Origin: Chloroflexota bacterium | Lineage (GTDB): Bacteria; Chloroflexota; Anaerolineae; Ardenticatenales; JAADHH01 | Reading direction: 5' to 3' | Assembly (NCBI GenBank): GCA_013151955.1 | Contig: JAADHH010000095.1 | Location: 3,195 to 67,194 of the forward strand | DNA: 64,000 nucleotides | Translations under genes and position numbers: made by a program | The notes under the pieces: model-generated | Databases searched by the model: none | What the model was told of the DNA's origin: nothing | Seen by the model: the letters and a program-made list of their open reading frames with translations, nothing else | In this document: piece by piece, positions 2,570 to 63,390 of the stretch | Layout: every line of letters starts with the position of its first letter | How positions within the stretch are numbered: the stretch's first letter is position 1

Positions 2570-2694
2570 GTATCTTCTCAATATTTCGGGGTGAGCAGAA
2601 CGTCGTGCCCCCCTACCCTCCCCAACTTTGGGGGGGAATGTGCTCCCCCAGAATTGGGGGCCGGGGGGCGTTCCCCAAGTTATTGAGATGATAC
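2570..2694 (+). mobile_element. MITE, shared-TIR superfamily, core type A (copy A1)
   Basis: GTATCTTCTCAATATTTCGGGG ... CCCCAAGTTATTGAGATGATAC. Core has C5/G5 hairpins (CCCCAACTTTGGGG, CCCCCAGAATTGGGGG). Flanks CAAATGTG / CAAATGCA match at 6 of 8. Confidence 0.85.
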
Positions 2695-2779
2695 CAAATG
2701 CAGTTCAGAATCTCATTTTGGGATCAGCAAATACAGTATACGCCGAACGGCCAATTTGTCAAGACAAGACGATTTCAAA

Positions 2780-2940
2780 GCAGTCCCCATGAGCGGCGCG
2801 CTCGCCACCAAGGATGAAAATGGCGGGGCGTGAAACGTGAAGACGTGAAACGTATTGCGTATTGCGTATTGCGTCTTACGCATCACGTTTTACGTTTTAC
2901 CTGACACCTGACACCTTATTTTCAAAGAAGTTGAACTTCT
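2780..2940 (+). repeat. Family E composite repeat, copy E1 (heptamer-phased array 2829-2915)
   Basis: CGTGAAA CGTGAAGA CGTGAAA (CGTATTG)x3 CGTCTTA CGCATCA (CGTTTTA)x2 (CCTGACA)x2. Flanked by ...CACCAAGGATGAAAATGGCGG and TTATTTTCAAAGAAGTTGAACTTCT. Confidence 0.9.
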
Positions 2941-3019
2941 AACTGGATGTGGTATAATCTCGAGCAAGTAAAGTTGAACCGTGCAGCCCGATTTCGCTAT
3001 GGACGGCGAGCCAACACTC

Positions 3020-5383
3020 ATGAAAACGATGACCTTATTCCCGAAACCTTTGCTCTTGCAACGTGTGCTCCGCTCCTTGCTGGTGCGGCGCGTCCGTTCC
3101 CTGTTGACGCTGGCCGGCATCATTGTGGGGGTAGCCGGCGTGACTGCGGTTGTTTTCACGGCCCGCAACCTGGCCGATGCCCAGGCAGATGTTTACGACT
3201 CCGCTTCTCAGGCCGATATAACGTTTTGGGTATGGGATGCCAGTCCCTCTTTGCCGCGCACACTCACCAACCGCCCCGACGTGACCGCTGTAGAACTGCG
3301 CTGGACCGATTACGTGAAGGCCAACCTGGGCGAGAGTCGCCAGACGCTGCACCTGATTGGGCTGTCCAATCCGGCAGAGACTACCGTGAACCGTCTCGAC
3401 TTGTTGGCCGGACGCTATCCCGGCCCGGACCAGGCGTTGCTGGAGATTTCCTCACGCGATCTGGCCCCCCTCGAAATTGGAGACTCGATTACCTACCTCG
3501 ATTCCGCGGGTCGCCAACGCCGCTTGACCATCAGCGGTCTCGCACGCAGCCCGGCGCTCCTTTCCGCGCAACTGACCGGCCTGGCCACGGCCTTCGTTCC
3601 GGCGCGTACCGTGCGAGACTTGTTGGGCGTCTCCGGCGCGAACCAATTGCTCATCCGCGTTGCCGACCCCCGCCACAGCGGTGAAGCGGCGCGCGACATT
3701 GCCCGCTCGCTTGACAACCAGCACCTGCAACATGACGAACCACAGATACGCGACCCGAACAATTTTCCCGGCAAACGGGAATTGGACGCCCTATTTCGTT
3801 TGCTGGCCCTTTTTGCAGCGCTGGGGCTACTGCTGTGTGGGGTACTGGTCGGCAATACGCTCTCCATGCTGGTTGCCGAAGAGCAAAACGAGATCGGCAC
3901 ACTGAAGGCATTGGGCGCAGACCGCACGTACATCCTGCAAAGCTATCTGTTGGCCGCCCTTGTTTACGGCTTCCTGGGCACGCCGGTGGGCATCGCGTTG
4001 GGTGCCCTGTTGGGTTGGCGGATCATGTCCTTTTTGGGCGGGCTGACCAGCCTGTCTGCCCCGTTTGCCCTTGCACCGGAGGGCATTGCTGTGGGCGTCG
4101 CCGTGGGGCTGGGCGTGACCTTTTCGGCCGGTCTGGTTCCCGCCTATCATGCAGCCATGCTTCCCGTATCCGAGGCCTTGCAACCGCATGGTCTGGTCTC
4201 TCGCTATGCCCGTACCCGCCTGGAGCGCGTGTTGCAACACATGCGCAGACTGCCGCCCCTGACGGCCATGTCGCTGCGCAACCTGAGCCGCCGCCGCACC
4301 CGCAACGGCCTGACCGTGTTGGTCATTGCCCTGGCTGTGGCTACCCTGTTGGCTGCCCAGACCACGGAAGCCTCTGTGAACGGCGCCATCGACGAGGTCT
4401 TCCGTACCTATCGCGCGCAAGCGTGGGTCTTCTTCCGCCGGCCGGTCAGCCCCGACCTGAAACAGAGTTTGCAGGCCATCCCCGGCGTTGGCCAGGCCGA
4501 ACCGTGGACGTTGACCGACGCCTGGGTTGGCCATGCCCCGGTGCGCCTCTGGGGCCTGCCGGCCGATACCACACTATACCGGCCCAACCTGATTGCCGGC
4601 CGCTGGTACCGCCCGGATGAGCCGCGAGGAGCGGTCGTATCCGCCGATCTAGCGAAGCGGCAAGGCATAAACAGGGGGCAAAGCATCCAGGTGGACCTGG
4701 GCGAAGGCCGCCAAACTTCGTTGCACGTGGTTGGTATCGCCATAGACAACACAATCTTCTTGGGCAGCCAGGTGCAAAGCAAGGTGTTTGCTCCCCGCCG
4801 GACCGTCGCGCGTCTGCACGGGCTGCAGGGGCAGGCCAGCCTGTTTGCGCTAGGCCTGCGAGAGGGATCGCCGGCAGCGGTACAGTCGATTCTGGCGCAG
4901 ATCGAGCAGCGTTATGCCGCGTGGTTGCCCGCCGGCGAATCGGCCCAAGCCGAGGTAGACGCCGCCCGCAAACAATCGCAGACGTTGGGGCTGGCCCTGC
5001 GCAGCATGGTCGCACTCGTGGCCATCATTGGCGCGATCGGTCTGACAAACACGTTGACCATCGGCGTGCTGGAGCGCCGGCGCGAAATCGGCGTACTGCG
5101 AGCCCTCGGCGCCACCGACCGTCAGATTGCCCAGACTTTCATCGTCGAGGGGGTCGCACTGGGCCTCATGGGGTGGGTGCTGGGAGCAGTCATCGGCTAC
5201 GGTTTGGGCCAGGGGCTTGTGTACACCTTGGGCAGTGTGCTGTTTCGCATTCGCTACCTTTTTCCGCCTGGGGTGCTGCTCCTCAGCCTGGCCTTTGCAC
5301 TGGTCATCGCGGTTGCTGCCAGCCTGGGGCCGGCCTGGGCCGCCGCTCGCCTGCCCACCATCGAGACCTTGCGATACGAGTAG
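3020..5383 (+). CDS. ABC-transporter permease with two FtsX domains (MacB/YbbP-like); no ATPase partner nearby
   Basis: 800-aa ORF from GTG 2981; a likelier start is ATG 3020 (MKTMTLFPKPLLLQRVLRSLLVRRVRSLLTLAGIIVGVAGV). Two TM1 / large loop / 3-TM units. C-terminal 'IGVLRALGATDRQI' FtsX signature. Confidence 0.85.
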   Translation: MKTMTLFPKPLLLQRVLRSLLVRRVRSLLTLAGIIVGVAGVTAVVFTARNLADAQADVYDSASQADITFWVWDASPSLPRTLTNRPDVTAVELRWTDYVKANLGESRQTLHLIGLSNPAETTVNRLDLLAGRYPGPDQALLEISSRDLAPLEIGDSITYLDSAGRQRRLTISGLARSPALLSAQLTGLATAFVPARTVRDLLGVSGANQLLIRVADPRHSGEAARDIARSLDNQHLQHDEPQIRDPNNFPGKRELDALFRLLALFAALGLLLCGVLVGNTLSMLVAEEQNEIGTLKALGADRTYILQSYLLAALVYGFLGTPVGIALGALLGWRIMSFLGGLTSLSAPFALAPEGIAVGVAVGLGVTFSAGLVPAYHAAMLPVSEALQPHGLVSRYARTRLERVLQHMRRLPPLTAMSLRNLSRRRTRNGLTVLVIALAVATLLAAQTTEASVNGAIDEVFRTYRAQAWVFFRRPVSPDLKQSLQAIPGVGQAEPWTLTDAWVGHAPVRLWGLPADTTLYRPNLIAGRWYRPDEPRGAVVSADLAKRQGINRGQSIQVDLGEGRQTSLHVVGIAIDNTIFLGSQVQSKVFAPRRTVARLHGLQGQASLFALGLREGSPAAVQSILAQIEQRYAAWLPAGESAQAEVDAARKQSQTLGLALRSMVALVAIIGAIGLTNTLTIGVLERRREIGVLRALGATDRQIAQTFIVEGVALGLMGWVLGAVIGYGLGQGLVYTLGSVLFRIRYLFPPGVLLLSLAFALVIAVAASLGPAWAAARLPTIETLRYE

Positions 5384-5556
5384 GAAACAGAGCGGATGCG
5401 CCCTGCCCCCACCGCTGCCGGTTGACTTTCAGAGCAGCCTGTGCTATCATCCGGCGGTACACGTGCCGCGGCCGGTGCGATACGATGGCTGCGTCGAGGG
5501 CTTCCCACAATTGCTGGAGGGACAAAGAAAGCGGTCTGATCAATTCAAAACCTTTT

Positions 5557-9836: not shown

Positions 9837-9883
9837 GGTGAGGCAAGAGACGAACGTCACACAAATGCGTGGAAAGAAGGCAA

Positions 9884-9925
9884 AGAAAAAGCCCTGTCCG
9901 GAGAGGATCAGGGCTTTTTCTTTTC
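9884..9925. terminator. Bidirectional rho-independent terminator between the GT39-like gene and flp
   Basis: Stem AAAAAGCCCTG (9886-9896) pairs with CAGGGCTTTTT (9909-9919) around a 12-nt loop. T-runs follow on both strands. Confidence 0.75.
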
Positions 9926-9946
9926 GTTGAAAGGAGAGCTACAGTA

Positions 9947-10235: not shown

Positions 10236-10285
10236 TAGGATGGTGGTACCAATTCCTGGCAGGAGAAAGCCCCAAATTCTGTAAT

Positions 10286-10422
10286 GTGTCAGGTGTCAGG
10301 TGTCAGGTAAAACGTGATGCGTGATGCGTAAGACGCAATACGTTTCACGTCTTCACGTTTCACGTCCCGCCATTTTGAAAATAAGTTTAGAAGTTCAACT
10401 TCTCGGAGAAGTTGAACTTCTT
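10286..10422 (-). repeat. Family E composite repeat, copy E2 (inverted relative to E1)
   Basis: The reverse complement reads CGTGAAA CGTGAAGA CGTGAAA CGTATTG CGTCTTA (CGCATCA)x2 CGTTTTA (CCTGACA)x3. Two AGAAGTTSAACTTCT palindromes at 10389-10421. Confidence 0.9.
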
Positions 10423-10452
10423 GGCCCAATGCGTGTTCCGTCGTCCCCCGCT

Positions 10453-17050: not shown

Positions 17051-17206
17051 CCTAGCAGGCTGTCGGAGAGGTCTGTTTTCTTCTCTATTAGGTCACAGAT
17101 TCTCACAGAGAAACACAGATGTTCAGGCCAAATCATCGGAAAATCTGTGTTTATCCTGCAAATCTGTGTCCCATGATTCTTTCTTTTCTCCGACAAGCTG
17201 CTAGTT
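17051..17206 (+). repeat. Family C repeat, copy C1 (subtype a, with terminal inverted repeats)
   Basis: CTAGCAGGCTGTCGGAGAG (left) is inverted relative to CTCCGACAAGCTGCTAG (right). The core 'CACAGATTCTCACAGA...AAAATCTGTGTTTATCCTGCAAATCTGTGTCCCATGATTCTTTC' is shared with 31681-31757. The left end forms a hairpin plus T-rich run just after the rplY stop. Confidence 0.8.
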
Positions 17207-20226: not shown

Positions 20227-22536
20227 GTGAATGCACAAAACAGAGGGCTGCGCTTTCTGCTGTTTCAAGTGGCAATCGTGGCCAGTTTCGTCATCTTGGC
20301 CATACCTCTGTGGCGACTTCAAATCGCCGAAGGGGGACACTACCGGCTACGGGCAGACGAAAACCGCTACTATGTAGTTTCGACCAACGCTCCTCGTGGC
20401 GTGATCTACGACCGGACCGGAAAGGTGTTGGCCCGCAACATGCCCAGGTTCAGCGTTCGCCTGTTGCCCAAAGCGATGGCCGATGATGCTGCCGAAGAAC
20501 AGGTATTGGAGCGCCTGATTTCAATGCTGAACGGGAAGATCGCCGGCGCTTCATTATCCAACCGTCCGTCAAATGGAGAGAATCTACACATCGAAGACAT
20601 CCGCAAACAACTTCAGGAAGGGCAATTCAATCCCTACCAACCCATTGTGATAGCAGACAACATCCCGCGGGACGTTGCCCTGGCCATCATGGAAGAACAT
20701 GAGAACCTTCCGGGGGTAGAAGTGACCGTGCGTGCACAGCGCCAATATGTGGAAGGCAAGTTGCTGTCCCACGTACTCGGTTTTGTCGGGAGCATCCCCG
20801 CAGAACAGGTGGATCGTTACGTGGGCCAACCCAACAGCGATTACACACCCCAAGATATCGTGGGCCTTTCCGGCGTGGAGTATGTTTTTGAGAATACACT
20901 CCGTGGGCACAAAGGCCAACGGCAAACCGAAGTAGACGTCGCCGGCCGTGAAGTGCGGATGATCAACGAAGTCCCAGCGGTCGCCGGCCACAACTTGATC
21001 ATCACGATAGATTTGGATTTGCAGCGCGTGGCTGCGGAAGCGCTGCGCAAACAGATGGCTATCATCCATTCCAAATCGGGCGTCGTAATTGCCATGAATC
21101 CCCAAAATGGGCAGATCCTGGCACTGGTTTCCCTGCCGAGCTATGACGACAACCTCTTCGTCGGCGGAATTTCTACGAACGATTACAACCGCCTGACCAA
21201 AGACGCTTTTCGCCCCCTCCTGAATCACGCCATCAGCGGAGTGTACCCCCCCGGTTCGACTTTCAAGATTGTCACAGCACTGGCCGCTCTGGAGGAAAAC
21301 GTCATTGATCGCAACACATACATCAATGATCCGGGCACCATCTGGCTGCCCAACAAATACTTCCCGGACGACCCAACCCTGGCCCAACCCTTCTACTGCT
21401 GGTACAAACCCGGCCATGGAGAACTGAATGTGGTGGGCGCGCTGGCACAATCGTGCGACGTGTTCTTCTACGAGGTGGGAGGCGGCTATCGTGAATTCCA
21501 AGGACTGGGGATAGAGAAACTCGCCGATTATTCACGACTCTTAGGCTTTGGGCGTGATACAGGAATTGACCTCCCCGGGGAATCGGCCGGTCTGGTGCCC
21601 AACAGGAAATGGAAGCGCTTGAACTATGGAGAAAGTTGGGTGACGGGCGACACATACAACATGGCCATCGGCCAAGGTGCCATCCTGGCCACCCCCCTGC
21701 AAGTTCTGAATGCCACGGCCGCAATCGCCAATGGGGGGACGCTCTACCAGCCCCAGTTGGTCTACCAGGTGCAAGACGCAGACGGCAATGTCCTGCGCGG
21801 ATTTCAACCGGATATCATCCGCCGGCTGCCCGTTTCCCAGGACAATCTCAACCTGGTGCGGGAGGGCCTGCGCCAGGCTGTACTCAATGGCACAGCACGG
21901 CATGTAAGCATCCCCGGTATATCCATCGCCGGCAAGACGGGCACCGCTGAATTCCCTGGCCGCCGGGACCGCGAGGGGAATTTGCCGACCCACGCCTGGT
22001 TTACGGCCTTCGCCCCTTTTCAAAACCCACAGATCGCCATAGTCGCTTTCGTCTACGGTGGAGGGGAAGGCTCGGCCGTATCGGTGCCCATTGCCCGGAA
22101 AATCTTGCAAGCCTATTTCCAGGCCCATCCCCTTTCCGGTTCGGAGGGGAGCGCGCCGGGAACGCCTCCTGCGAGTACAGGGGGCGCGCCGCCCCCTTCG
22201 GCCCCATCGCCGACACCCGCCGGACAGCCAGGTTCTTTCCAGGGACACATCGTCTCCGTTCAGCCACAAGAAAAGGAAATCTCTACCCTGTCCGGACAAG
22301 TTATCGACCGCTTCGGCAACGGGATACCGGGGACACAGGTAACACTCGATGGAGGCGGCCCGCCCGTGGCCCAGTTTGCAACCGGACCCAACGGCGAGTT
22401 CCAATACGATTATTTCAATCCGGCTTCCTCCCCCACGTGGAACATCCGCCTGACCGATTTACCGGGAGCACCGGTACTCACCGTGCAGGTGCAACCTTTC
22501 AAACATTACGTGGTAGAATTTCGCGAGGGCCGGTGA
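20227..22536 (+). CDS. mrdA: Penicillin-binding protein 2 (elongasome transpeptidase) with Pro-rich linker and C-terminal CarboxypepD_reg-like extension
   Basis: 769 aa. 'STFK' active site, 'SCD', and 'KTGTAE' (KTG box). C-terminus '...LSGQVIDRFGNGIPGTQVTLDGGG...GPNGEFQYD'. Confidence 0.93.
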   Translation: MNAQNRGLRFLLFQVAIVASFVILAIPLWRLQIAEGGHYRLRADENRYYVVSTNAPRGVIYDRTGKVLARNMPRFSVRLLPKAMADDAAEEQVLERLISMLNGKIAGASLSNRPSNGENLHIEDIRKQLQEGQFNPYQPIVIADNIPRDVALAIMEEHENLPGVEVTVRAQRQYVEGKLLSHVLGFVGSIPAEQVDRYVGQPNSDYTPQDIVGLSGVEYVFENTLRGHKGQRQTEVDVAGREVRMINEVPAVAGHNLIITIDLDLQRVAAEALRKQMAIIHSKSGVVIAMNPQNGQILALVSLPSYDDNLFVGGISTNDYNRLTKDAFRPLLNHAISGVYPPGSTFKIVTALAALEENVIDRNTYINDPGTIWLPNKYFPDDPTLAQPFYCWYKPGHGELNVVGALAQSCDVFFYEVGGGYREFQGLGIEKLADYSRLLGFGRDTGIDLPGESAGLVPNRKWKRLNYGESWVTGDTYNMAIGQGAILATPLQVLNATAAIANGGTLYQPQLVYQVQDADGNVLRGFQPDIIRRLPVSQDNLNLVREGLRQAVLNGTARHVSIPGISIAGKTGTAEFPGRRDREGNLPTHAWFTAFAPFQNPQIAIVAFVYGGGEGSAVSVPIARKILQAYFQAHPLSGSEGSAPGTPPASTGGAPPPSAPSPTPAGQPGSFQGHIVSVQPQEKEISTLSGQVIDRFGNGIPGTQVTLDGGGPPVAQFATGPNGEFQYDYFNPASSPTWNIRLTDLPGAPVLTVQVQPFKHYVVEFREGR

Positions 22537-22634: not shown

Positions 22635-22765
22635 GTATCTTCTCAATAATTCGGGGTAGGGGCACGGCCTTGCGCCTGCCCCGTAGGGCGACCGCTGCCC
22701 CGTAGGGTGACCGGCTGCCCCATAGGGCGACCGCAAGGGTACGCCCCTACTTTTTGAGAAGATAC
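22635..22765 (+). mobile_element. MITE, shared-TIR superfamily, core type B (copy B1)
   Basis: TIRs GTATCTTCTCAATAATTCGGGG / rc GTATCTTCTCAAAAAGTAGGGG. Flanking 8-mers AGAATATG (22627-34) and AGAATACG (22766-73) match at 7 of 8 positions, consistent with a TSD. Core holds 3 copies of a ~19-bp unit CTGCCCCGTAGGGCGACCG. Confidence 0.85.
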
Positions 22766-28122: not shown

Positions 28123-30018
28123 CTATTCATGCCACGGAATGATCAAGGCGTTATCCTGGGCCCGGCCCGAAGCAACCGGCAGCCGCTCTCCCGTCTCTGG
28201 CCGGTACATGCCGACCAATAGCTGGTATGGCCCCGGGGGCGCATCGCCGGGAACGACCAGCCTGTGGACATCGCGGATCACGTCGCCGGCCCGCCACTGC
28301 CGGGTACGAAATGTCCCCTCGCGTGGTGGCCCATCATGTTGCGCCCAACGTTTTCCCTGCGCATCCACCAGGTGGACGAAGACCGTGTAATCGGCGGCCG
28401 GCACAGCTTCCGCTTGCCATAGCAGAGTGACGGTGAGCGGCTGTCCCGGACGAATCACCCCCCCAGACCCCTCCCGCGCCCTTCCCGGCGAGGAAACGTC
28501 GTACCCCAGCAGGCGAATCGTTTGGGCCAGGTCCCCATCGTATGCACGAAAAGGGCGCGCCGGTCTACACAATTCATAGCCGTCCACCCGCCCGGTGCAG
28601 GCATAGTACATCTCCATGGCCGACAGCATTTCCCGACTGAAGCGGTGGAAGCCCTCGCGGTCGGCGTGTGCGCCCCGGCGAAGAACGAGGAGCGGGAAAC
28701 GGTGTGCGGCCAGGTCCTGCAAGAAGGGCGCGGGGTCCCACGCCCCCTGAGCGGCAAGTTGTGTATAGACAAAAGAATGGATGGCAACGGGCCGGTCATT
28801 GACGGCCAGGATGCCCATATCCTCCGCCAGGATGGGGTCAGGCACTCCCGCTAACCGTGCGGAGAGCTGCTCGTCAATCTGGGCCGTATGTTGCAGCCAG
28901 GCCGCCTCGGCGACCGGCCCCAACCGCTCAAATCCCGGCAGGAAGAGGCCCAGTTGTGCAATCACCAGCAGGGCCACGAGCAGGGTCGCCCATCCTCCAT
29001 TGCGCCGGTCGCCCAAGCGTTGCCAGGCCATGGCGGCGAGCAGGCACATCACGGCCAGCGTTTCCAAGTAATAGTTCTCCCACGCGCCCGCCTTGCCGGC
29101 GGAGAGCGTCACCAATGCTGCGCACAGGAAATAAACCCCGGCCAAGGAAAGGTGCCGCTCGCGCCACTCCATCAGCAATTCTCCCCCCGCCGAAATTGCG
29201 ATCAGGGCAACAAGTGCCAGAAACCCGCCGGTAAATCGCAGAAACGCCGCCAAATTGTAGGGGTTGGCGTTGCCGATCACCACGTCCGTAAAGAAAGTCC
29301 CTCCGGTGGCCAGATTCAAGCCGGCGAAGGCCAGTCCCCCGGCCGTGACCATTCCCAAGGCCCAAAGCAGCCCCCGCCGTCTGTCTTGCGATAGAAGCAC
29401 AAGGCCGTATGCCAGCGGCGCGGCAACGAACGATTGTTTGGTATAGAAGGCCAGCAAGAAGAGCAGGGAAGCAAAGAAGATGCGGCGCGGCGCAAACGTC
29501 TTTTCCCCTACAGGATATGCCAGGTACATGCCGGCCAGGCTAAAGGCCAATGCCAGCGCGTCGGGACGGAAAAACGTAGCCCAGCGGTAGGCGAAGGGAG
29601 AGGCGAGAAAGAGCAACGCGGCCATCATCGCCCACCTCTGCGCCGTCTTCTCACGACGGGCCAGGGCATAGATCACCCAGGCACTCAGCAAGATGCTGCC
29701 GGCCGAAATCAATCGCCCGCCCCACAGCGCCGGCCCGCCCAAACGCAAGAATTGTGCGGAAAGCCAGAGATAGAGAGGGGTGTAGACGGAAAAAGTGTAG
29801 GGGAAGCCCTCAATCGGTTTGTATGGCCAGCCTCCTCGTGCAAACTGGCGCGCCCAATCGAGCACCGGCCCTTCGCCATACTCAATCGTGTAGGGAAACC
29901 TGATTACCGCCCAACTCCGGTAGGCAAAGGCCAGCAAAAACAGGGCCAGCAACCCAAAAGCAAGGAGCGTTGCGCCCTGCCCGGGCCACCCGGTTTCGGA
30001 CTGGTGACGCCGGCTCAT
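28123..30018 (-). CDS. GT39/GT83-like (ArnT/PMT_2-type) polytopic membrane glycosyltransferase with C-terminal soluble domain
   Basis: ORF 28123..30192 trimmed to ATG 30018 (MSRRHQSETGWPGQGATLLAFGLLALFLLAF...). At least 11 hydrophobic helices. The C-terminus matches the domain in 5557..7488 and 7485..9836. Confidence 0.8.
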   Translation of the reverse strand: MSRRHQSETGWPGQGATLLAFGLLALFLLAFAYRSWAVIRFPYTIEYGEGPVLDWARQFARGGWPYKPIEGFPYTFSVYTPLYLWLSAQFLRLGGPALWGGRLISAGSILLSAWVIYALARREKTAQRWAMMAALLFLASPFAYRWATFFRPDALALAFSLAGMYLAYPVGEKTFAPRRIFFASLLFLLAFYTKQSFVAAPLAYGLVLLSQDRRRGLLWALGMVTAGGLAFAGLNLATGGTFFTDVVIGNANPYNLAAFLRFTGGFLALVALIAISAGGELLMEWRERHLSLAGVYFLCAALVTLSAGKAGAWENYYLETLAVMCLLAAMAWQRLGDRRNGGWATLLVALLVIAQLGLFLPGFERLGPVAEAAWLQHTAQIDEQLSARLAGVPDPILAEDMGILAVNDRPVAIHSFVYTQLAAQGAWDPAPFLQDLAAHRFPLLVLRRGAHADREGFHRFSREMLSAMEMYYACTGRVDGYELCRPARPFRAYDGDLAQTIRLLGYDVSSPGRAREGSGGVIRPGQPLTVTLLWQAEAVPAADYTVFVHLVDAQGKRWAQHDGPPREGTFRTRQWRAGDVIRDVHRLVVPGDAPPGPYQLLVGMYRPETGERLPVASGRAQDNALIIPWHE

Positions 30019-31427: not shown

Positions 31428-31518
31428 GTATCTTCTCAATAAAACGGGGTGGGACGACCCAGAAGTTCGACTTTTGGTAAAAGTCGAACTTCTTCGCCCC
31501 GGAATATTGAGAAGATAC
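31428..31518 (+). mobile_element. MITE, shared-TIR superfamily, core type D (copy D1)
   Basis: GTATCTTCTCAATAAAACGGGG ... CCCCGGAATATTGAGAAGATAC. Core is the palindrome AGAAGTTCGACTTTTGGTAAAAGTCGAACTTCT. No TSD is visible. Confidence 0.8.
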
Positions 31519-31757
31519 GTCAACATCGACAAAAAGTTGTCTATGTTTCTGTAGGACACAGATTCTCACAGAAAAACAGTATCTTCTCAAAAAGTAGGGG
31601 CGATCCCTTGCGGTCGCCCTACGGGGCAGGCGCAAGGCCATGCCCCTACCACACGGATTATTGAGAGGATACGAAAAACAGAGATAAAACATTCAGAAAA
31701 ATCTGTGTTTATCCTGCAAATCTGTGCCCCATGATTCTTTCTCCGACAAGCTGCTAG
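31519..31757 (+). repeat. Family C repeat, copy C2 (mosaic), interrupted by MITE B2
   Basis: GTCAACATCGACAAAAAGTTGTCTATGTTTCTGTAGGACACAGATTCTCACAGAAAAACA [insert] GAGATAAAACATTCAGAAAAATCTGTGT...CTCCGACAAGCTGCTAG. The uninterrupted form is at 63421-63480. Confidence 0.85.
31579..31672 (-). mobile_element. MITE, shared-TIR superfamily, core type B (copy B2), nested inside repeat C2
   Basis: GTATCTTCTCAA...TTGAGAGGATAC flanked by a perfect 8-bp direct repeat GAAAAACA (31571-78 and 31673-80). The copies at 63421-63480 and 48001-48040 carry GAAAAACA only once. Confidence 0.9.
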
Positions 31758-32744: not shown

Positions 32745-32852
32745 TCTCCGGTATGGGCGCCCCTTGCGGTCGCCTTGGGCCAGGGCGAGCCTTGGGCCAG
32801 GGCGAACCTTGGGCAAGGGCGAACCTTGGGCAAGGGCGAACCTTGCCCCTAC
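32745..32852 (-). repeat. TIR-less type-B core containing a 4.5x tandem 17-bp repeat
   Basis: Units CCTTGGGCCAGGGCGAG (32773-89), CCTTGGGCCAGGGCGAA (32790-806), and CCTTGGGCAAGGGCGAA twice (32807-40). Flanked by CCCTTGCGGTCGCC and CCCCTAC as in MITE B cores. Fills the E1-alpha/E1-beta gap. Confidence 0.85.
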
Positions 32853-36310: not shown

Positions 36311-36520
36311 CGCGATTTTCATCCGTGGTGGCGTGCAACCGCTCAGGGTGACTGTTATGAAAATAACGTGTCAGGTAAAACGTAATGCGTGATGCGTGAT
36401 GCGTAAGACGCAATACGCATTACGTTTCACGTCTTCACGTTTCACGCATTACGTTTCACGCCTTCACGTTTCACGTCCTACGATTTTCATCCTTGGTGGC
36501 GGGCAACCGCCCATGGGCAC
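36311..36520 (-). repeat. Family E composite repeat, copy E3 (longest array, about 15 units)
   Basis: 36369-36478 is the inverted heptamer array with the GAAA block duplicated. Bracketed by a ~38-bp direct repeat CGATTTTCATCCNTGGTGGCGNGCAACCGC (36314-50 and 36481-520). Confidence 0.9.
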
Positions 36521-36628
36521 TGCTTTCTTAATACTACCCTGTTTCGCAAAAAAATGCAAGAGGCCGATGTTCCACGGTTGACAAACGAACCTACGCGCGC
36601 TAGAATAAGTTCATCACATTGGGAGGTC

Positions 36629-39073: not shown

Positions 39074-39262
39074 GTAGCCATGCGCGGCTGCGCGCCACCA
39101 ACGATGAAAATGGCGGGACGTGAAACGTGAAGGCGTGAAACGTAATGCGTATTGCGTCTTACGCATCACGCATCACGCATTACGTTTTACCTGACACCTG
39201 ACACGTTATTTTCATAACAGTCGTCAGAGCGTGTTGCGTAGTGCGTATTGCGTGCCGCTCGC
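39074..39262 (+). repeat. Family E composite repeat, copy E4
   Basis: CGTGAAA CGTGAAGG CGTGAAA CGTAATG CGTATTG CGTCTTA (CGCATCA)x2 CGCATTA CGTTTTA (CCTGACA)x2, followed by extra NTTGCGT units at 39231-39255. Confidence 0.9.
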
Positions 39263-40514: not shown

Positions 40515-40526
40515 CAATGATTGAAG

Positions 40527-40655
40527 GTATCTTCTCGATAATTCGGGGTGAGCAGAACGTCATGCCCCCCTAACCCCCCAACTTTGGGGGGAATGTGCTC
40601 CCCCAGAATTGGGGGCCGGGGGGCGTTCGCGTTCCCCAAGTTATCGAGAAGATAC
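40527..40655 (+). mobile_element. MITE, shared-TIR superfamily, core type A (copy A2) with perfect 8-bp TSD
   Basis: GTATCTTCTCGATAATTCGGGG ... CCCCAAGTTATCGAGAAGATAC. Flanked by GATTGAAG at 40519-26 and 40656-63. Inserted between the CoA-transferase stop and the thiolase RBS. Confidence 0.92.
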
Positions 40656-40673
40656 GATTGAAGGAGTATATCG

Positions 40674-41816
40674 ATGACTACAGCATATATCATTGAAGCA
40701 GTGCGCACACCAAGTGGCCGGCGAAATGGATTGTTGCGCCCTATGCGCCCCATCGAGCTGGCTGCATTCATCCTGCGAGCACTCGTCGAGCGGGCCAACA
40801 TCGAGCCTGAACAGATTGACGATGCGATCATGGGCTGCGTGACCGAGACCGGTGAGCAAGGGGGGAATATCGCCCGGCTGGCCACGCTCCACGCCGGATT
40901 CCCGGTGACCGTGCCGGCGGTGACGCTCAACCGGATGTGCGGCTCCGGGCAACAGGCCATACACTTCGCCGCCCAAGCCGTTTTGGCGGGCGACATGGAC
41001 CTGGTCATCGGCGGTGGCGTGGAGAGCATGAGTCGCGTGCCGATGGGGTCTGACTGGAATTTCACCGCGCTGCCGGCCGGTTTTCCCTTCGACCTGGTTC
41101 CGCAAGGGATCTCGGCGGAAATGATGGCCGAGAAGTGGAATCTGTCCCGTGAGGTGCTGGACGATTTTGCCTATGAGAGTCACCTGCGTGCGGCACGGGC
41201 CACACACGAAGGCCGCTTCGACCGCGAGATCGCCCCGGTGGAGGTGCCCCTCGACGGTGGCACACGCACGGTGCGTGTGGACGAAGGCATCCGTTTCGAA
41301 CCAGACCGGGAAAAGATGGCCGCGTTGCAACCGGCATTCAAACCGGGCGGCGTGATCACGGCGGCGAATGCCAGCCAGATCAGTGACGGCGCTGCGGCGC
41401 TGCTCGTTGCTTCGGAGCGGGCGGTCCGCGAATATGGCCTGCGGCCACGTGCCCGCATCGTGGCCCGTGCCGTCGTTGGCACCGACCCCGTGCTCATGCT
41501 CGATGGCCCGATACCCTCTACGTCTCGCGTCCTGGAGCGCGCCGGCTTGACCCTGGACGACATCGCCTGCTTCGAAGTGAACGAAGCGTTTGCCTCGGTT
41601 GTACTGGCCTGGCAGCGCGAAACTGGCGTCGACCTGGAGCGGGTGAACGTCAACGGTGGCGCTATCGCCCTGGGACACCCGTTGGGGGCCACCGGCGCGC
41701 GCCTGATGACCACCCTGCTCCACGAGTTGGAGCGTACCGGAGGACGCTATGGCTTACAAACGATGTGTATCGGCTGGGGAATGGCCACGGCCACAATCAT
41801 TGAACGAATTGCGTAA
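40674..41816 (+). CDS. Thiolase (acetyl-CoA C-acyltransferase)
   Basis: 380 aa. 'VTLNRMCGSGQQAI' (active Cys), 'NVNGGAIALGHPLGATG', and 'CIGWGMA' at the C-terminus. Confidence 0.95.
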   Translation: MTTAYIIEAVRTPSGRRNGLLRPMRPIELAAFILRALVERANIEPEQIDDAIMGCVTETGEQGGNIARLATLHAGFPVTVPAVTLNRMCGSGQQAIHFAAQAVLAGDMDLVIGGGVESMSRVPMGSDWNFTALPAGFPFDLVPQGISAEMMAEKWNLSREVLDDFAYESHLRAARATHEGRFDREIAPVEVPLDGGTRTVRVDEGIRFEPDREKMAALQPAFKPGGVITAANASQISDGAAALLVASERAVREYGLRPRARIVARAVVGTDPVLMLDGPIPSTSRVLERAGLTLDDIACFEVNEAFASVVLAWQRETGVDLERVNVNGGAIALGHPLGATGARLMTTLLHELERTGGRYGLQTMCIGWGMATATIIERIA

Positions 41817-53487: not shown

Positions 53488-53495
53488 TCTTTTTC

Positions 53496-57000: not shown

Positions 57001-57560
57001 TCCCAAATACACACGCTCAGGTTTTCCGTCGCGAAGGAAACATCTCCCCCCGGATTGGGTGTCGTGGTGGGCGTGAAGGTCGGTGTGGGCAAGGGCGCAA
57101 AGGTAGGAGGACTATCCTGCCATGGAGCCGATTCGCCTCCCGATCCAACAATGGTGCGTGCAGAGACAAAGCTGACCGTCATCGATGGTAGGATACGGTT
57201 GATAAACGGGGTCATCGGATGGTAAGAATAGCTGGGAGTTACCACGATGCGGTAGTCTCCCGGTATCGTTTGCGAAAGGTCTACGTTGTGACCAAAAACG
57301 CCGTCATCATAGGCGATGGCAACGTGTACATCATCGGCGCGAATGGTTACAATTTTGGAGCGTACTGCCTGAATGATCCCCAAGGTATCGCCCGGATTGG
57401 CCGCACCGTAGCGGGAACCTTCCCTTGCCGCATTCGACAGATTGCTCCAAAGCAACATAGCATGGCCCATGTCCACAATGCCTGAAATGATGATGAGCAA
57501 TATCGGCAGTACAAGCGCAAATTCTAGTAAGCTCTGCCCTTTTTGGGTTCTTCTCTTCAT
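54036..57560 (-). CDS. Giant TadE-N-terminal / vWA-domain protein (1174 aa) with internal tandem modules; putative pilus-associated adhesin
   Basis: SD GGAGGG upstream. N-terminus 'MKRRTQKGQSLLEFALVLPILLIIISGIVDMGHAMLLWSNLSNAAREGSRYG' (TadE). vWA MIDAS 'VLDRSGSMDD...YTNIG...VVLSDGVANRR' (residues ~869-1080). Thr/Pro linkers. Two homologous ~127-aa modules at residues 291-417 and 445-570. Confidence 0.85.
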   Translation of the reverse strand: MKRRTQKGQSLLEFALVLPILLIIISGIVDMGHAMLLWSNLSNAAREGSRYGAANPGDTLGIIQAVRSKIVTIRADDVHVAIAYDDGVFGHNVDLSQTIPGDYRIVVTPSYSYHPMTPFINRILPSMTVSFVSARTIVGSGGESAPWQDSPPTFAPLPTPTFTPTTTPNPGGDVSFATENLSVCIWDTFNLSNYVQVSPVGTSYTFYYEQQPGPEQFRNWHLDDFNAHRNVTVVPDDMNGGNQGTGRYRVYAVVPATGEQDSVTIQVSDCGRSSPTATTIASSPTPTTPAQCQSIAASDITLHDNDELRVTLTNNASHDNAKITRIYFVWPTSGDYPNMKVDKFKLDDHEIWEGDDASPPTDVTLSGHDDHREIEHGHHKTWKAKIKDGPEHLTDVFNLSSYQVTIYFEGGCAVSASGSSQFGPSPTPESTAQPSPTPVPTTSSQCSGLTASQLVTVPSNKDHVQTTITNGTDEDAELDRIVFYWPESDHYPHMKIDWFKLGGHRIWGGDGHSSPTDVSHFSGDKEIKKNHGKTWEADFDHSPSDLASYFNMGDFVVTFYFENGCSITTSGSGGSQGPESTPTSTTTPSGSPTATPTPGGSQEVCYVSPNPAYPGQGPEYFYTQLYATDMGGYIRIRLVLDKEFVDNTYGANTSEYWKNGRLKQHTFQDLWKSDRAQFLLYDGNGSEVMDISVDYLDVDGSAPSGYASQGVTGGDGSVNVGNAAWVLSASTSLDYNLNSAGYSNMTTDSPATDANYTPNPSYPNWLYEVIYTVDVDKAAFGQAGFDHVTIPYIHASPSRVGQNTVNVQPGPCAPPAATSTPQGGATSTPTSTATPTPTVTATPTTSGQCEIADIAIGVQPTGTPFTQHTKLDVMIVLDRSGSMDDAGGNPPQPISDAKSAAKLLIDQLDSSTDKVGLVSYSTTASKDHSLTNNFNSVKNAIDNFNANGYTNIGDAVYKAQQELNSSRARSNAIPIIVVLSDGVANRRHGSSQGCSTWPSSPTNCTNDAINQAASAKNQGTTVFTIGLNLGDVGQQHGSATENLARNVLRSMASDSAHYYEAPNSSDLAGIFQDIGTQITQIIWKNVVVTEVLPADLQYVNGSANPSPASVNGQTMTWNLGNMKVDDSVTITLSATVSNPPPSSAGTAQVSFTGSDDQTHVVDLAPQITGTRPCP

Positions 57561-57717
57561 GGGTCCTGCCCTCCACGTCTACGCAAGCATGTAGAATCCG
57601 AAGATGGTCTTGAAATAGTCTTTGCCTTCTACTATTATATCCTAACGCTACGTGCCAAGCAATAGGATTGTAGTACCGTTACACAGCCAACTTCTGCCAT
57701 TGTGACAAGCAAATGAG

Positions 57718-57842
57718 GTATCTTCTCAATAATTCGGGGTGAGTGGACCGTCGTGCCTCCCTACCCCCCAAAAACTTTTGGGGGAGTGTGCTCCCCCAGA
57801 ATTGGGGCCCCGGGGGCGTTTCCCAGGTTATTGAGAAGATAC
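57718..57842 (+). mobile_element. MITE, shared-TIR superfamily, core type A (copy A3)
   Basis: GTATCTTCTCAATAATTCGGGG ... CCCAGGTTATTGAGAAGATAC. Flanks CAAATGAG / CAAATGGA match at 6 of 8. Confidence 0.85.
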
Positions 57843-57898
57843 CAAATGGACGAATCGGCGAATGTCCCCTGGCCAAAGACCACGCCGGTCTGCCAAAA

Positions 57899-59863: not shown

Positions 59864-59885
59864 ACCTGTCTCCTCAATCAATTTT

Positions 59886-59945
59886 AGAAGTTTTCTCCCA
59901 GAAGTTCAACTTCTCCCAGAAGTTGAACTTCTGAACTTCTGGGGG
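59886..59945. repeat. Cluster of AGAAGTTSAACTTCT palindromes
   Basis: AGAAGTTTTCTCCCAGAAGTTCAACTTCTCCCAGAAGTTGAACTTCTGAACTTCTGG. The same palindrome is found at 2926-2940, 10389-10421 and within MITE D1. Confidence 0.85.
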
Positions 59946-59986
59946 AACTTATTATTTACGCTTGCTTACTTTGCCGGATTTGGCTT

Positions 59987-61408
59987 CTACGGTAAGGCCG
60001 TGGCAACCACGGAGCCGTCGTCGTCTGTAAGATCAATCAGCACATGTTCCAGCGCACCGGTAAACATGCGCATCTGGTCTTTGATGATGATTTCTGTCCA
60101 GGCCGCGAGGTGGCCATATACGATGACACGTGGTTTGCCTTTCTCCCGGTCTTGCGCCATGTCTTCCAACTGCTTCCGCAATTCTTCGGCCTCTTCATTC
60201 AGAATGGCTTGAACACCCTCCAACCGGGAGAGCAGATCGGCTCGGTCGGCGGGCAATTGGCCAAAGTCGTCTTTCAGTCCTTCCAGGATGGAGATTTGTG
60301 CGTTGACTTGTTGCAGATTCTTGATATCTGCGTCCAGTCGCTTTTGGCTTTCTCTGCGCTTCCGGGCACGAGACGGTTTCTCTCCCACGCGCAGACGGGT
60401 AACCGCTCCTCGTCGCGACCCCACGTTGACCACGTTGATATCGTTGCCGGCGACCATAGTACCGGCAACGATGTCCCCCCTTTGTGTGTCCTCGGATCCG
60501 ACGATGATGGAATCCTCAGCCTGGAAATGGCAGCGCACAGCTTCGCGTTCCACGTAAACATTGCCTCCTGCGGCGACGTTCGTGCGGTCCGCGAACTGTA
60601 GATGTACGTCCCCCTGGGCCACGATATTTGCTCGATTGGGCCCACTGACCACGCCCTTTTTGACGTACACATCACTGTCGCTCTCCAGCGCGGCATCCTC
60701 CAGGAATCCGTGCACAGTTATGTCCCCGGTTGCTTTGACCTTGAACCCGCTGCGTACATTGCCATGAATGATCACCTGACCATCGACATCGAGATTGCCT
60801 GTAGAGAAATCTACATCCCCATTGACAGTGAAGGTCTGCTCTACGGAAAGGCGCACAGTTTTTCCGTAGTCGCGGATGTGCAATTGCCCGTTGATGGACG
60901 CAATCAACTCCAAGGGGTCTGCCTCGGACAATTGTGTGCCATGCCCTGTTGGCAAGGGTACATCACGGCCATTGTGTGCCGGAAGGGGACGTCCCAACAC
61001 ATTGAACCCCGGTGTCCCTTGTGTCGGAGGAATCTTGCGTGCCAGCGACTGCCCTGCGCTGACGTTGATCACCAGTCCCAAGTTACGATAATCTACGCGA
61101 CCACTCTCTTTCTCTTGAGGTCTTCCCGCCTCCGGCAAATCCACAAGAAGTTCAATTTGCGCGTCGGTACCGTGGATGGCCGGTTGCCCCTCGGCGACCA
61201 ACTCGCGGTTCACGTAGCGCTGGCCGGCGATGATTTCATCAATTTTGTCCAGAAGCACGCCACCTTCCACGGATGCCTGGCCCAGTGCTTCGTAGACATC
61301 GTCCACGGTGTAAGGATAGGGTTCCCCATCAAGAGAACGCGGCAGGGTGAGATAGGCCTTCATCTTATCCTGCGATACGGTTACCTTCCGAGGGGACTTC
61401 GCGTTCAT
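59987..61408 (-). CDS. FapA/DUF342 family protein
   Basis: ORF to 61498; likely start ATG 61408 (MNAKSPRKVTVSQDKMKAYLTLP). Beta-helical 'GNVRSGFKVKATGDITVHGFLEDAALESDSDVYVKKGVV...GDVHLQFADRTNVAAGGNVYV' and a C-terminal coiled coil. Confidence 0.8.
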   Translation of the reverse strand: MNAKSPRKVTVSQDKMKAYLTLPRSLDGEPYPYTVDDVYEALGQASVEGGVLLDKIDEIIAGQRYVNRELVAEGQPAIHGTDAQIELLVDLPEAGRPQEKESGRVDYRNLGLVINVSAGQSLARKIPPTQGTPGFNVLGRPLPAHNGRDVPLPTGHGTQLSEADPLELIASINGQLHIRDYGKTVRLSVEQTFTVNGDVDFSTGNLDVDGQVIIHGNVRSGFKVKATGDITVHGFLEDAALESDSDVYVKKGVVSGPNRANIVAQGDVHLQFADRTNVAAGGNVYVEREAVRCHFQAEDSIIVGSEDTQRGDIVAGTMVAGNDINVVNVGSRRGAVTRLRVGEKPSRARKRRESQKRLDADIKNLQQVNAQISILEGLKDDFGQLPADRADLLSRLEGVQAILNEEAEELRKQLEDMAQDREKGKPRVIVYGHLAAWTEIIIKDQMRMFTGALEHVLIDLTDDDGSVVATALP

Positions 61409-61700
61409 GCTCCATTCGGCCTTTTCGGCGAATCGCAGAGAGAGATTCGTTCCGCTTTCCGCCCCTGGGTGATTGTCCTGCAAAGTAGGCGTACACAATG
61501 GAGGTCAACATTTATTCCATCCGCTAAATTATACCAAATTTCTTGCCAAAAGTAAATAGGCGCTTAGGGCGTCAACATCGACGAAATTTTGTCACTGCTT
61601 TGAAAACCAGATGTCAGTTGTCAGTCGTCAGTAGCCAGATGTCAGATGTCATATCATGTAGCCCTTGAATCCCCATTCCAGGGCGGGTTCGTCCCTCTGG

Positions 61701-61767
61701 CCCCCCTACCCCCCCAATCCTGGGGGGAACCATCCGACTCCCCCCAGAATTGGGGGGCCGGGGGGGC
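61701..61767 (+). repeat. TIR-less fragment of the type-A MITE core
   Basis: CCCCCCTACCCCCCCAATCCTGGGGGGAACCATCCGACTCCCCCCAGAATTGGGGGGCCGGGGGGGC parallels the A1-A3 cores. A family C left-end fragment sits at 61556-61595. Confidence 0.7.
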
Positions 61768-61803
61768 TTCCGCCGCTCCACGCTCCACGCCCCTCCTCGC
61801 AGG

Positions 61804-63285
61804 TCACTCTTGCAGCAGTGTGATGGCTGCTTGCAAGCGTTGCAACACCCGTTCCCTCCCCAATATGTGAATCGTGCCAAAGAGGGGGGGCGACACCTTC
61901 TTGCCGGTGACGGCCACGCGAATTGGGCCAAAAAAGGCGTTGGGCTTGAGCTGCCTTCCGGTAACGACGGCCCGCAAGGCTGTTTCCACGTCGGTCTCCG
62001 CAAAGGTGGGGAGAGAAGCAAGCGTTTGGTAGGCCAAATCCAGCAGTTGCCGGGTTTGATCCACGGTCTGTTTCTTGCCGACCAGATCGTGGGGGGTAGG
62101 GTGGACTTCCGGGACGAAGAAACTGTCAACCAAGTCAACGGCGTCGGGCAGACGCTTGATGCGCACCCGAATGAGTGGTACCAACGCGCGCAAGGTATCC
62201 ATATCCGGGGATAGTCCCGCGTCGCGCAGAACAGGGAGCAGGCGGGCCGCCAAATCATCCACGGGCATCGTGCGGATGTACTGACCATTCATCCAATCAA
62301 GCTTTTCATAGGAGAAGGCAGCGGCGGATGGCTTCACCTGGTCCAGGTCAAAATGATCGATCAGTTGTTGGCGGGTGATGATCTCCGTGTGATCGTCGTA
62401 GCTCCAACCGATCAGGGCCAGGAAGTTGAACAGGGCCTCCGGCAGGTATCCTGCGGCGCGAAAATCTTTCAGATGGACGTAAGCTTCGCGATTGCCGGCC
62501 AGTTTCTTGCGTTTGCTCATTTTCCCTTTGCCGGAGGGGTCCAAAATGATCGGCAGATGCGCGAAGAGGGGCGGCGTCCACCCAAACGCTGCGTAGAGTT
62601 GCACATGTTTGGGCACGCTGGGCAACCATTCATCGGCACGCAGGACGTGCGTGATGGCCATCAAATGATCATCCACGACGTTGGCCAGGTGGTAGGTCGG
62701 AAAGCGGTCCGTTTTGAGCAGCACAAAATCATCGAGCGTCTCATTCTGCACGACGATGTCCCCCCTGATCTGGTCGTGGAATCGAGTTTCCCCTTCCAGC
62801 GGCATTTTGAAGCGTACGACTGCTGTCTCTCCCCGCGCTTCGCGGTCCCGTCTTTGCTGCGCTGTCAGCCCGCGACAGCGGCGGTCGTAGCCGGCCGGTT
62901 CTTTGCGTGCCTGCCGTTCTTTTCGCATTTGGGCCAGGCGGTCGGGAGAGCAGAAGCATTTATAGGCATGGCCCTCCGCAATCAGTTGTTCGGCGTATCG
63001 GCGATAGATATCCGTCCTCTCAGACTGGAAGTAGGGACCGTAGGGGCCACCGGCTTCCGGGCCTTCATCCCAATCGAGGCCCAGCCAACGCAAGCCACTC
63101 AGCAGGTCGTCCAACGCATCCTCCTGGTAGCGTGTGCGGTCGGTATCCTCGATACGGAGGATGAACTGCCCGCCGTAGTGCCGGGCAAAGAGCCAGTTGA
63201 ACAGTGCCGAGCGGGCACCGCCCACGTGGAGATAGCCGGTGGGACTGGGTGCAAACCGTACACGTGGTCTTTGTTCTTGTTTCAT
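61804..63285 (-). CDS. gltX: Glutamyl-tRNA synthetase
   Basis: ORF to 63453 runs into repeats; trimmed to ATG 63285: MKQEQRPRVRFAPSPTGYLHVGGARSALFNWLFARHYGGQFILRIEDTD (HIGH region); 'KMSKR' (KMSKS). Confidence 0.95.
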   Translation of the reverse strand: MKQEQRPRVRFAPSPTGYLHVGGARSALFNWLFARHYGGQFILRIEDTDRTRYQEDALDDLLSGLRWLGLDWDEGPEAGGPYGPYFQSERTDIYRRYAEQLIAEGHAYKCFCSPDRLAQMRKERQARKEPAGYDRRCRGLTAQQRRDREARGETAVVRFKMPLEGETRFHDQIRGDIVVQNETLDDFVLLKTDRFPTYHLANVVDDHLMAITHVLRADEWLPSVPKHVQLYAAFGWTPPLFAHLPIILDPSGKGKMSKRKKLAGNREAYVHLKDFRAAGYLPEALFNFLALIGWSYDDHTEIITRQQLIDHFDLDQVKPSAAAFSYEKLDWMNGQYIRTMPVDDLAARLLPVLRDAGLSPDMDTLRALVPLIRVRIKRLPDAVDLVDSFFVPEVHPTPHDLVGKKQTVDQTRQLLDLAYQTLASLPTFAETDVETALRAVVTGRQLKPNAFFGPIRVAVTGKKVSPPLFGTIHILGRERVLQRLQAAITLLQE

Positions 63286-63309
63286 GTCTCCCCTTGATTT
63301 GATACTTTC

Positions 63310-63390
63310 GTATCTTCTCAATATTTTGGGGGAATGTGCTCCCCCCAGAATTGAGGCCCGGGGGGCGCTCCCCAAGTTATTGAGATGATA
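63310..63390 (+). mobile_element. MITE, shared-TIR superfamily, truncated type-A core (copy A5)
   Basis: GTATCTTCTCAATATTTTGGGGGAATGTGCTCCCCCCAGAATTGAGGCCCGGGGGGCGCTCCCCAAGTTATTGAGATGATAG. The right TIR is degenerate, and there is no TSD. Confidence 0.75.

Follow-up and report, generated by a model that had tools for sequence, protein, structure and literature searches.

The DNA considered here is a stretch of 64,000 nucleotides, hereafter the window, from a Chloroflexota bacterium (Anaerolineae; Ardenticatenales; JAADHH01; GenBank assembly GCA_013151955.1, contig JAADHH010000095.1, positions 3,195–67,194, forward strand). Its genes are of housekeeping type, among them those for PBP2, MinC, MinD, RodA, a 2-oxoacid dehydrogenase E1, a Tad pilus cluster and glutamyl-tRNA synthetase. 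Exact protein matches put it on an 81,883-bp contig of a Chloroflexota metagenome-assembled genome (proteins NOZ06181–NOZ06217, locus tags GXP41_). By our estimate ~90% of it is coding, and all seven of a set of short elements bounded by one terminal inverted repeat (TIR) lie in the intergenic remainder. These elements are very probably MITEs (miniature transposons with inverted repeats), non-coding and non-autonomous, which share their ends with a 1.8–1.9-kb insertion sequence (IS) of the IS66 family carrying a single open reading frame (ORF). This partner IS, of ISBst12-like organisation, is widespread in Chloroflexota. The evidence comprises ends identical to those of the IS, 8-bp target-site duplications (TSDs), a pair of filled and empty sites, and the presence of each type of element at several unrelated sites. 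The features concerned are as follows, the elements being typed by their interiors (A, B and D).

2570–2694, plus strand: type A MITE of 125 bp, 22-bp TIRs around a GC-rich nested hairpin; flanks CAAATGTG (2562–2569) and CAAATGCA (2695–2702) match at 6 of 8 positions, CAAATGnn on both sides.
22635–22765, plus strand: type B MITE of 131 bp with 3.1 tandem 19-bp units; TSD AGAATATG / AGAATACG, 7 of 8.
31428–31518, no strand assigned: type D MITE of 91 bp whose core is a AGAAGTTCGAC...GTCGAACTTCT palindrome; no TSD.
31518–31742, plus strand: R repeat, the filled site with a nested type B MITE, reading ...CACAGAAAAACA[94-bp MITE]GAAAAACAGAGATA...
31579–31672, minus strand: type B MITE of 94 bp, inverted relative to the 22635 copy and nested inside the R repeat; perfect 8-bp TSD GAAAAACA (31571–31578 and 31673–31680).
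40527–40655, plus strand: type A MITE of 129 bp; perfect 8-bp TSD GATTGAAG (40519–40526 and 40656–40663).
57718–57842, plus strand: type A MITE of 125 bp with the type A core and a nested hairpin fold; flanks CAAATGAG (57710–57717) and CAAATGGA (57843–57850) match at 6 of 8 positions, CAAATGnn on both sides.
61700–61771, plus strand: TIR-less type A core ('G5C5' repeat), ~82% identical to type A over 66–67 nt.
63310–63391, plus strand: type A deletion derivative of 82 bp, the left half of the core missing; no TSD.
63402–63490, plus strand: R repeat paralogue, the empty site for the 31579–31672 insertion, reading ...CACAGAAAAACAGAGATA...

Six of the seven elements have the coordinates given by an earlier reading made from the letters alone (the sequence-only reading), while the last ends at 63391, one base beyond the 63390 given there. 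No ORF of at least 120 amino acids is confined to an element, and where listed ORFs overlap one, they are neighbouring genes extended too far at the N-terminus or read in an alternative frame.

The terminus consensus is a bipartite 22-bp TIR, GTATCTTCTCAATAA-N3-GGGG, from which the termini of the window elements differ by 1–3 mismatches. With up to three mismatches allowed, this consensus has 13 matches in the window against 0.00 expected from shuffles, and its first 15 bases have 15 matches against 0.53 expected, namely the 14 termini and a weak three-mismatch match at 20885. All 14 termini pair up in inverted orientation, giving exactly seven elements of 82–131 bp where chance predicts no pair, and no unpaired terminus of credible quality was found in the 64-kb window, which bears out the earlier claim of seven elements with a shared TIR of ~22 bp. 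Conservation was assessed on 71 TIR-bounded elements, the seven of the window being joined by 64 drawn from 43 other assemblies. Across their 142 ends, TIR positions 1–15 are conserved, as is a GGGG at positions 19–22 (87–92%) that lies outside the search pattern; positions 16–18 and those past 22 show no conservation, and the recognisable end is a bipartite 22-mer. All seven window copies are, as in MITEs, non-coding, shorter than ~300 bp and bounded by the 22-bp TIRs, and they occur as multiple copies at unrelated loci with differing flanks. The TIR also carries, partly by inspection, a −10-like AATAAT pointing inward and a −35-like TTGAGA pointing outward.

The same termini bound complete insertion sequences. 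At the Caldilineales locus L016, a frameshifted gene for an IS66-family transposase lies between exact termini spaced 1,730 bp apart, and the DNA obtained for six transposase clusters with 55–82% amino-acid identity to the L016 protein was TIR-bounded in every case. Nine full-length IS copies of 1.73–1.92 kb with the same 22-bp ends were recovered from other Chloroflexota and metagenomes; they come from the six clusters, all in assemblies other than that of the window. Four distinct IS insertions carry 8-bp TSDs. The full-length IS with these TIRs, for which the sequence-only reading had proposed a search, thus exists. The loci other than L016 are:

L121: IS of 1,919–1,920 bp, TSD ACAGTGGC.
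L125: IS of 1,919–1,920 bp, TSD CCTGAAGG.
L122: IS of 1,800 bp, TSD CTCTAACA.
L126, L127 and L128: IS of 1,799 bp, TSD GAAAACTT.
L129 and L130: IS of 1,805 bp, bounded by the same TIR.
L120: right end of the IS only.

Each IS has a single 1.63-kb ORF encoding 542–548 amino acids (called at 503 amino acids in L125 and frameshifted in L016), without tnpA or tnpB. The transposases score 42.7–59.7 bits on Pfam PF03050 (DDE_Tnp_IS66; gathering cut-off 23.1), and it is because of this match, the TSDs and the end pattern that we assign them to the IS66 family. The copies are mutually 64–75% identical in DNA and all keep the 15-mer and a (C/G)G(T/G)GG block, while several pairs are 99.8–99.9% identical at different metagenome sites, indicating that the IS lineage is active. 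A protein search returned >5,000 transposase homologues at E ≤ 1e-10, most of ~545 amino acids and on contigs of ~2 kb, as collapsed repeats would give. A relative on a Nostoc plasmid, with 48% amino-acid identity, has ends GTATCCGCTCAGAAAACCGGGG / GTATCCCCTCAATAGTTCGGGG and the 8-bp TSD CATCATCG. At its N-terminus the partner transposase forms a coiled coil. In several sources the proteins go under the names 'ZapB' or 'hypothetical', and JGI labels many members of the clade 'FtsZ-binding cell division protein ZapB' or 'regulator of replication initiation timing'; the ZapB-type labels are a systematic misannotation, evidently caused by the coiled coil.

ISDge4 of Deinococcus geothermalis, which belongs to the ISBst12 group and was shown to transpose, ends in GTAACTGCTCAGCA, with an 8-bp direct repeat (PMC12898284). 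The partner IS resembles it in its single ORF, DDE_Tnp_IS66 domain, 8-bp duplications and N-terminal coiled coil, and the end pattern GTA-CT-CTCA is common to GTAACTGCTCAGCA and to the partner ends GTATCTTCTCAATA, which start GTATC. It differs in its transposase (~545 against 449 amino acids), which falls below the NCBIfam IS66 equivalog cut-off, and in the extra conserved GGGG at TIR positions 19–22; the window, moreover, has miniature derivatives only and not the IS.

Direct repeats of 8 bp abut the termini perfectly in 33 of the 71 elements and at 7 of 8 positions in a further 15, against 0.7% and 0.5%, respectively, in a control with re-paired left and right flanks, and direct repeats of 6, 7, 9 or 10 bp abut the termini in none of the 71. 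Within the window the grades agree with those given by the sequence-only reading, at 8 of 8 for 31579 and 40527, 7 of 8 for 22635 and 6 of 8, in the form CAAATGnn, for 2570 and 57718, the mismatches in these last two falling at positions 7–8; no TSD is present at 31428 or 63310. CAAAT(G/T) also stands to the left of L014, L106 and the L016 IS, which hints at a weak target hot spot. A logo of 48 target sites revealed weak AT enrichment only and no motif matching CAAATG. That CAAATG is a part of type A itself was ruled out, type A having unrelated perfect TSDs elsewhere.

Insertion can be read directly at the 31579 element, which interrupts the R repeat. The uninterrupted copies at 63402–63490 and 17089–17184 read ...CACAGA(A/G)AAACA(G/C)AGAT..., and the sole large difference between filled and empty copies is the element plus one additional copy of the 8-mer. 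This is the product expected of transposition, and thus of the insertion of 31579–31672 with duplication of GAAAAACA; the paralogue of the filled site is still 90–97% identical.

As the sequence-only reading had it, the interiors in the window fall into three groups without cross-match: type A (2570, 40527 and 57718, with the derivative at 63310), type B (22635 and 31579, in opposite orientations) and type D (31428), and the tandem ~19-bp units described for type B were recovered as 3.1 units in the 22635 copy. The 71 interiors as a whole form 40 clusters. Similarity between MITEs and IS ends after 15–29 terminal bases, and the possibility that the interiors are remnants of deleted IS was ruled out, no interior matching the inside of any IS. 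For every window element the fold is a single long hairpin, with z-scores between −5 and −11 against shuffles, and even with the TIRs removed 51 of the 71 interiors fold at z < −2 (median −4.4). The core shared by the type A copies was correctly recognised by the sequence-only reading, while the 'twin hairpins' that it saw there fold as one nested three-tier hairpin.

The type A core also exists apart from the TIRs. A search with the TIR-independent pattern CCCCCAGAATTGGGG-N0-3-CCGGGGG found at least 120 metagenome loci (L131–L250). Among the copies listed, 122 of 129 are without IS66-type TIRs, and 5–7 are genuine type A MITEs, whose 8-bp TSDs are clean and unrelated. Type A is thus a compound, a second repeat family being present in minimal form within an IS66-type chassis. 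The free-standing G5C5 repeat is palindromic, 57–200 bp long and variable inside, with arms GATCGCCCCC(C)-N2-3-CCCCCAATTCTGGGGG ... CTCCCCCAGAATTGGGGGCCGGGGGGCGATC; both arms are present in 77 of the 113 assessable copies listed, and no TSD is evident. Rfam at gathering score gave nothing relevant at four metagenome loci with the GC-rich palindrome, and no literature match for the G5C5 repeat was found.

The earlier suggestion that the cores have an existence of their own, independent of the TIRs, is therefore strongly confirmed for type A, including the window copy at 61700–61771, and plausible for type D, whose core resembles TIR-less AGAAGTTCAACTTCT double palindromes at 10389–10421 and 59900–59932, and is not established for type B. 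The TIR-less type B core proposed at 32745–32852 was not accepted as homologous, the likeness consisting of a 14-nt identity only (E ~0.01). That stretch is a 17-bp tandem repeat of 4.3 units, CCTTGGGCAAGGGCGAA (32773–32845), which occupies the short spacer separating the dehydrogenase genes E1 alpha and E1 beta. Type B itself is present in at least seven other Chloroflexota assemblies at 79–86% identity to the window copy at 31579, with flanking DNA unshared. The interior of type A at least, and probably that of type D too, comes from a host pool of palindromic intergenic repeats, so that new MITE types seem to arise when such a palindrome comes to lie between a pair of TIRs.

The distribution of the termini was assessed with an exact 15-mer scan of 185,579 species-representative genomes (596 Gb), which found at least 119 loci; the counts that follow are among the matches listed. 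Chloroflexota account for 72 of the loci, in Anaerolineae, Caldilineales, Thermoflexales, Ardenticatenales, Chloroflexaceae and some Dehalococcoidia. Since by our own calculation ~1000 chance matches would be expected in 596 Gb, the matches in other phyla are mostly noise. In Chloroflexota, 54 of the 76 exact 15-mers are matched by an inverted partner within 400 bp, at distances of 55–170 bp, and of the others 7 lie at locus edges and 2 are ends of full IS, whereas 4 of 44 are paired in other phyla and 9 of 120 in IMG/VR viral contigs, where the remaining 111 are single and the 'pairs' have neither the GGGG block nor duplications. The termini, which the sequence-only reading would have taken for a protein-binding or uptake-type motif had they occurred mostly singly, are thus mostly paired in this phylum, an outcome in favour of element ends. 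Carriage by phages was considered and rejected, the viral scan having yielded single matches at chance level and no transposase, and it serves as a negative control. At least 37 assemblies labelled Chloroflexota carry the repeat, as does the cultured Thermoflexus hugenholtzii JAD2 (L027). In proteobacterial metagenome-assembled genomes (MAGs) there are elements of 59–155 bp with a related TIR, GTATCTTCTCAATAACCCCGTGCA... (L072 3848–3984 and 5511–5569; L029 1433–1587), one of them with a perfect 8-bp TSD GATTAACC; their sequences suggest that sister MITE families may exist outside Chloroflexota.

Under the MITE reading, a DDE transposase of ~545 amino acids, supplied in trans by an IS elsewhere in the genome, would bind both TIRs, excise or copy the element and integrate it across an 8-bp staggered cut, and purifying selection would leave copies in intergenic DNA only. 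A new type would be founded when a resident palindrome lands between a TIR pair, by nested insertion or by capture.

Several observations weigh against this reading. The window contains no transposase, as the sequence-only reading had noted (none among its 30 major ORFs, and no match in a tblastn of the window with an IS66-type transposase), and a partner IS in this genome is an assumption. The partner transposases score 112–121 bits on the NCBIfam IS66 equivalog model NF033517, below its cut-off of 180, and are accordingly a divergent branch of the IS66 family. Two of the seven window copies (31428 and 63310) have no TSD, and those at 2570 and 57718 reach only 6 of 8 with the same CAAATG on each side, for which simple insertion does not account. 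Two syntenic relatives (L123 and L124) do not offer a clean empty site at the 57718 locus, having no TIR element over ~19 kb and a different, unalignable sequence at the site itself. Finally, type B is 79–86% identical to the window copy across assemblies labelled as different orders, a figure that either horizontal spread or selection on the sequence could produce. As to the missing TSDs, 31428 and 63310 abut the same end of the R repeat, a pattern that could stem from recombination between copies or from a MITE-plus-R unit having been duplicated.

Some of these points would also fit a variant in which the elements have the same origin but are fossils, the genome now being without a matching transposase and the copies persisting as immobile relics through drift or a host function. 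We consider this possible but doubtful. The 64 kb without a transposase, the two copies without a TSD and two with imperfect ones, the copy that is a deletion derivative and the termini with their 1–3 mismatches are all compatible with decay, but two copies retain perfect 8-bp TSDs and one of them is nested inside a repeat whose paralogue is 90–97% identical, which suggests fairly recent insertion, and the near-identical IS copies at different metagenome sites show the lineage to be active elsewhere.

A further proposal concerns the MITE interiors. It holds that the TIR pair is a general chassis that repeatedly acquires resident host palindromes, and is suggested by the 40 clusters among 71 elements, by a type A palindrome far commoner without TIRs than with them, and by the self-complementarity of most interiors; we regard it as a tentative and rather unlikely generalisation. 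Candidate routes would be palindromes that insert preferentially in the loop of a MITE hairpin, or a transposase that requires a fold-back substrate.

That the elements are structured RNAs or regulatory hairpins (terminators, mRNA stabilisers or small RNAs), with the 'TIR' as a selected closing stem, we consider very improbable. It would explain why all of them fold far better than shuffles, why type B is kept across at least seven assemblies, with L075 retaining three pairs through double changes, and why one copy lies between two genes of an apparent operon. However, the same 'stem' flanks a transposase gene, the interiors it would close are unrelated, both orientations are found, the 57718 element's position is not kept in relatives, and the 8-bp TSDs and the empty site demonstrate insertion. 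The comparison with Rfam that the sequence-only reading proposed produced no match at any element. Rfam 15 over the whole window had no match at gathering score and nothing relevant at E ≤ 5, a weak Chloroflexi-1 match (22.6 bits against 80, at 28757–28834) lying outside all elements. A scan of two regions that contain elements turned up no T tract of the terminator-like kind. The idea that type B is an RNA under selection was set aside, as ten sequences show almost no covariation (covariation term −0.02 kcal/mol). We read its distribution as probable horizontal spread of a transposon, a selected RNA being less likely.

Least credible of all, and hardly to be entertained, is a protein-binding or uptake motif in chance inverted pairs, or repetitive extragenic palindromic (REP) or bacterial interspersed mosaic element (BIME)-like palindromes moved by a REP-associated tyrosine (RAYT, Y1) transposase, a reading that would suit the high density, the palindromic organisation and the many other intergenic palindromes of this genome but not a terminus that is almost never single in Chloroflexota loci and is the end of a DDE-type IS, nor 8-bp TSDs, which Y1 transposases do not produce. 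REP superfamilies are defined by GTAG or CGTC heads (PMC3733652). REP and BIME sequences are 20–40-bp palindromes with such heads and without TSDs, whereas the present elements are 82–131 bp long, have 22-bp TIRs and 8-bp TSDs and on inspection contain no GTAG or CGTC head.

The MITE reading also places the family among known systems. MITEPsy1 of Pseudomonas syringae, the MITE of ISPsy2, with TIRs of 18 nt, a TSD of 4 nt (CTAG/YTAA) and a single interior, is confined to one species complex and has been shown by experiment to move (PMC3189936). The window elements, like MITEPsy1, are non-coding, ~100 bp long and multi-copy, share only their ends with an IS, bear TSDs and presumably move by means of a transposase acting in trans; they differ in the 22-nt TIR, the 8-bp TSD, the dozens of unrelated interiors and the spread across Chloroflexota, and are known from sequence alone. 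In their TIRs, length (100–150 bp), long hairpins and intergenic or intercistronic location they resemble the Correia elements of Neisseria, ERIC/IRU and RUP. Those are hairpin-forming, MITE-like intergenic repeats with one interior per family, which can alter transcript stability or supply promoters; Correia elements duplicate TA, and no transposase is known for them. In sharing one TIR and TSD type while having interiors unrelated to each other and to the IS, the window elements resemble the plant Tourist and Stowaway families, in which one TIR/TSD type per transposase superfamily is combined with many families of unrelated interiors; these are eukaryotic, with PIF/Harbinger or Tc1/mariner transposases and 2–3-bp TSDs.

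With regard to neighbouring genes, the 2570 element lies between a thioesterase gene (2081–2530, minus strand) and an FtsX/MacB permease gene (2981–5383, plus strand), and that at 22635 upstream of minC, directly past the PBP2 gene's terminator-like hairpin. The 31428 element abuts the left end of the R repeat. The 40527 element separates a CoA-transferase gene's stop codon from the ribosome-binding site belonging to a thiolase gene, its right TSD copy overlapping the GAAGGAG Shine-Dalgarno sequence of the ATG at 40674, and thus forms a hairpin of −83 kcal/mol between two co-directional genes; effects on neighbouring genes are possible from such positions. The 63310 element, whose right tip reads GATAG instead of GATAC, abuts the R repeat and lies ~25 nt upstream of a gltX-like start codon.

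Other repeats share the intergenic space. Inside the R repeat (~190 bp; 17089–17184, 31518–31742, 63388–63500 and, in part, 61556–61600) are inverted motifs, CACAGATT/AATCTGTG, and a hairpin, CGACAA...TTGTCG; at two loci a MITE without a TSD abuts the repeat's left end, and the repeat is possibly a further non-autonomous element, or else a promoter or leader present in several copies. A composite module of short heptamers in tandem (GTGTCAG, CGTGATG and ACGTTTC/ACGTCTTC), palindromically laid out, is found at 10282–10440, 2800–2940 (inverted), 36350–36533 and 39090–39253, with heptads also at 61600–61650, and is reminiscent of the short tandemly repeated heptamers of cyanobacteria. In the 10282–10440 and inverted 2800–2940 copies it is followed by the AGAAGTTCAACTTCT palindrome. 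Perfect double palindromes AGAAGTTCAACTTCT-N3-AGAAGTTGAACTTCT, each arm itself palindromic, stand downstream of gene 3' ends at 10389–10421 and 59900–59932, and a single unit (2925–2940) stands upstream of the permease gene; the double form has a shape that would suit a dimeric binding site or a bidirectional terminator. In the syntenic relatives, the region orthologous to 57561–57898 (L123 3605–3995; L124 3861–4251) holds a heptad run, GTAGCAG TTCAGTA GTCAGTA, and a GGCGGTCTCCTGACCG hairpin without TIRs that resembles the interior of one MITE cluster (L011, L046, L057, L080 and L033).

The family appears to be undescribed and is an ordinary kind of mobile DNA; in the literature outside ISfinder and most subscription journals we found no description of the elements, of an IS66-derived Chloroflexota MITE or of the sequence strings. 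Current understanding of transposition is unchanged. What the finding provides is a name and a mechanism for a repeat in the intergenic DNA of many Chloroflexota MAGs, tied to a very large and poorly annotated clade of IS66-family transposases, which helps annotation, the understanding of breaks in MAG assembly and the avoidance of false 'novel RNA' calls. As the cultured Thermoflexus hugenholtzii JAD2 carries such elements, experiments are feasible. The unrelated palindromic interiors, together with the nesting with a second palindromic repeat, constitute a data set on the birth of MITE families, and the more interesting question is how one TIR pair encloses so many host palindromes. Were a specific mechanism to lie behind such a general chassis, the superfamily would be a phylum-wide vehicle that makes MITE families and carries host hairpins from one genome to another, and not a collection of decayed IS copies.

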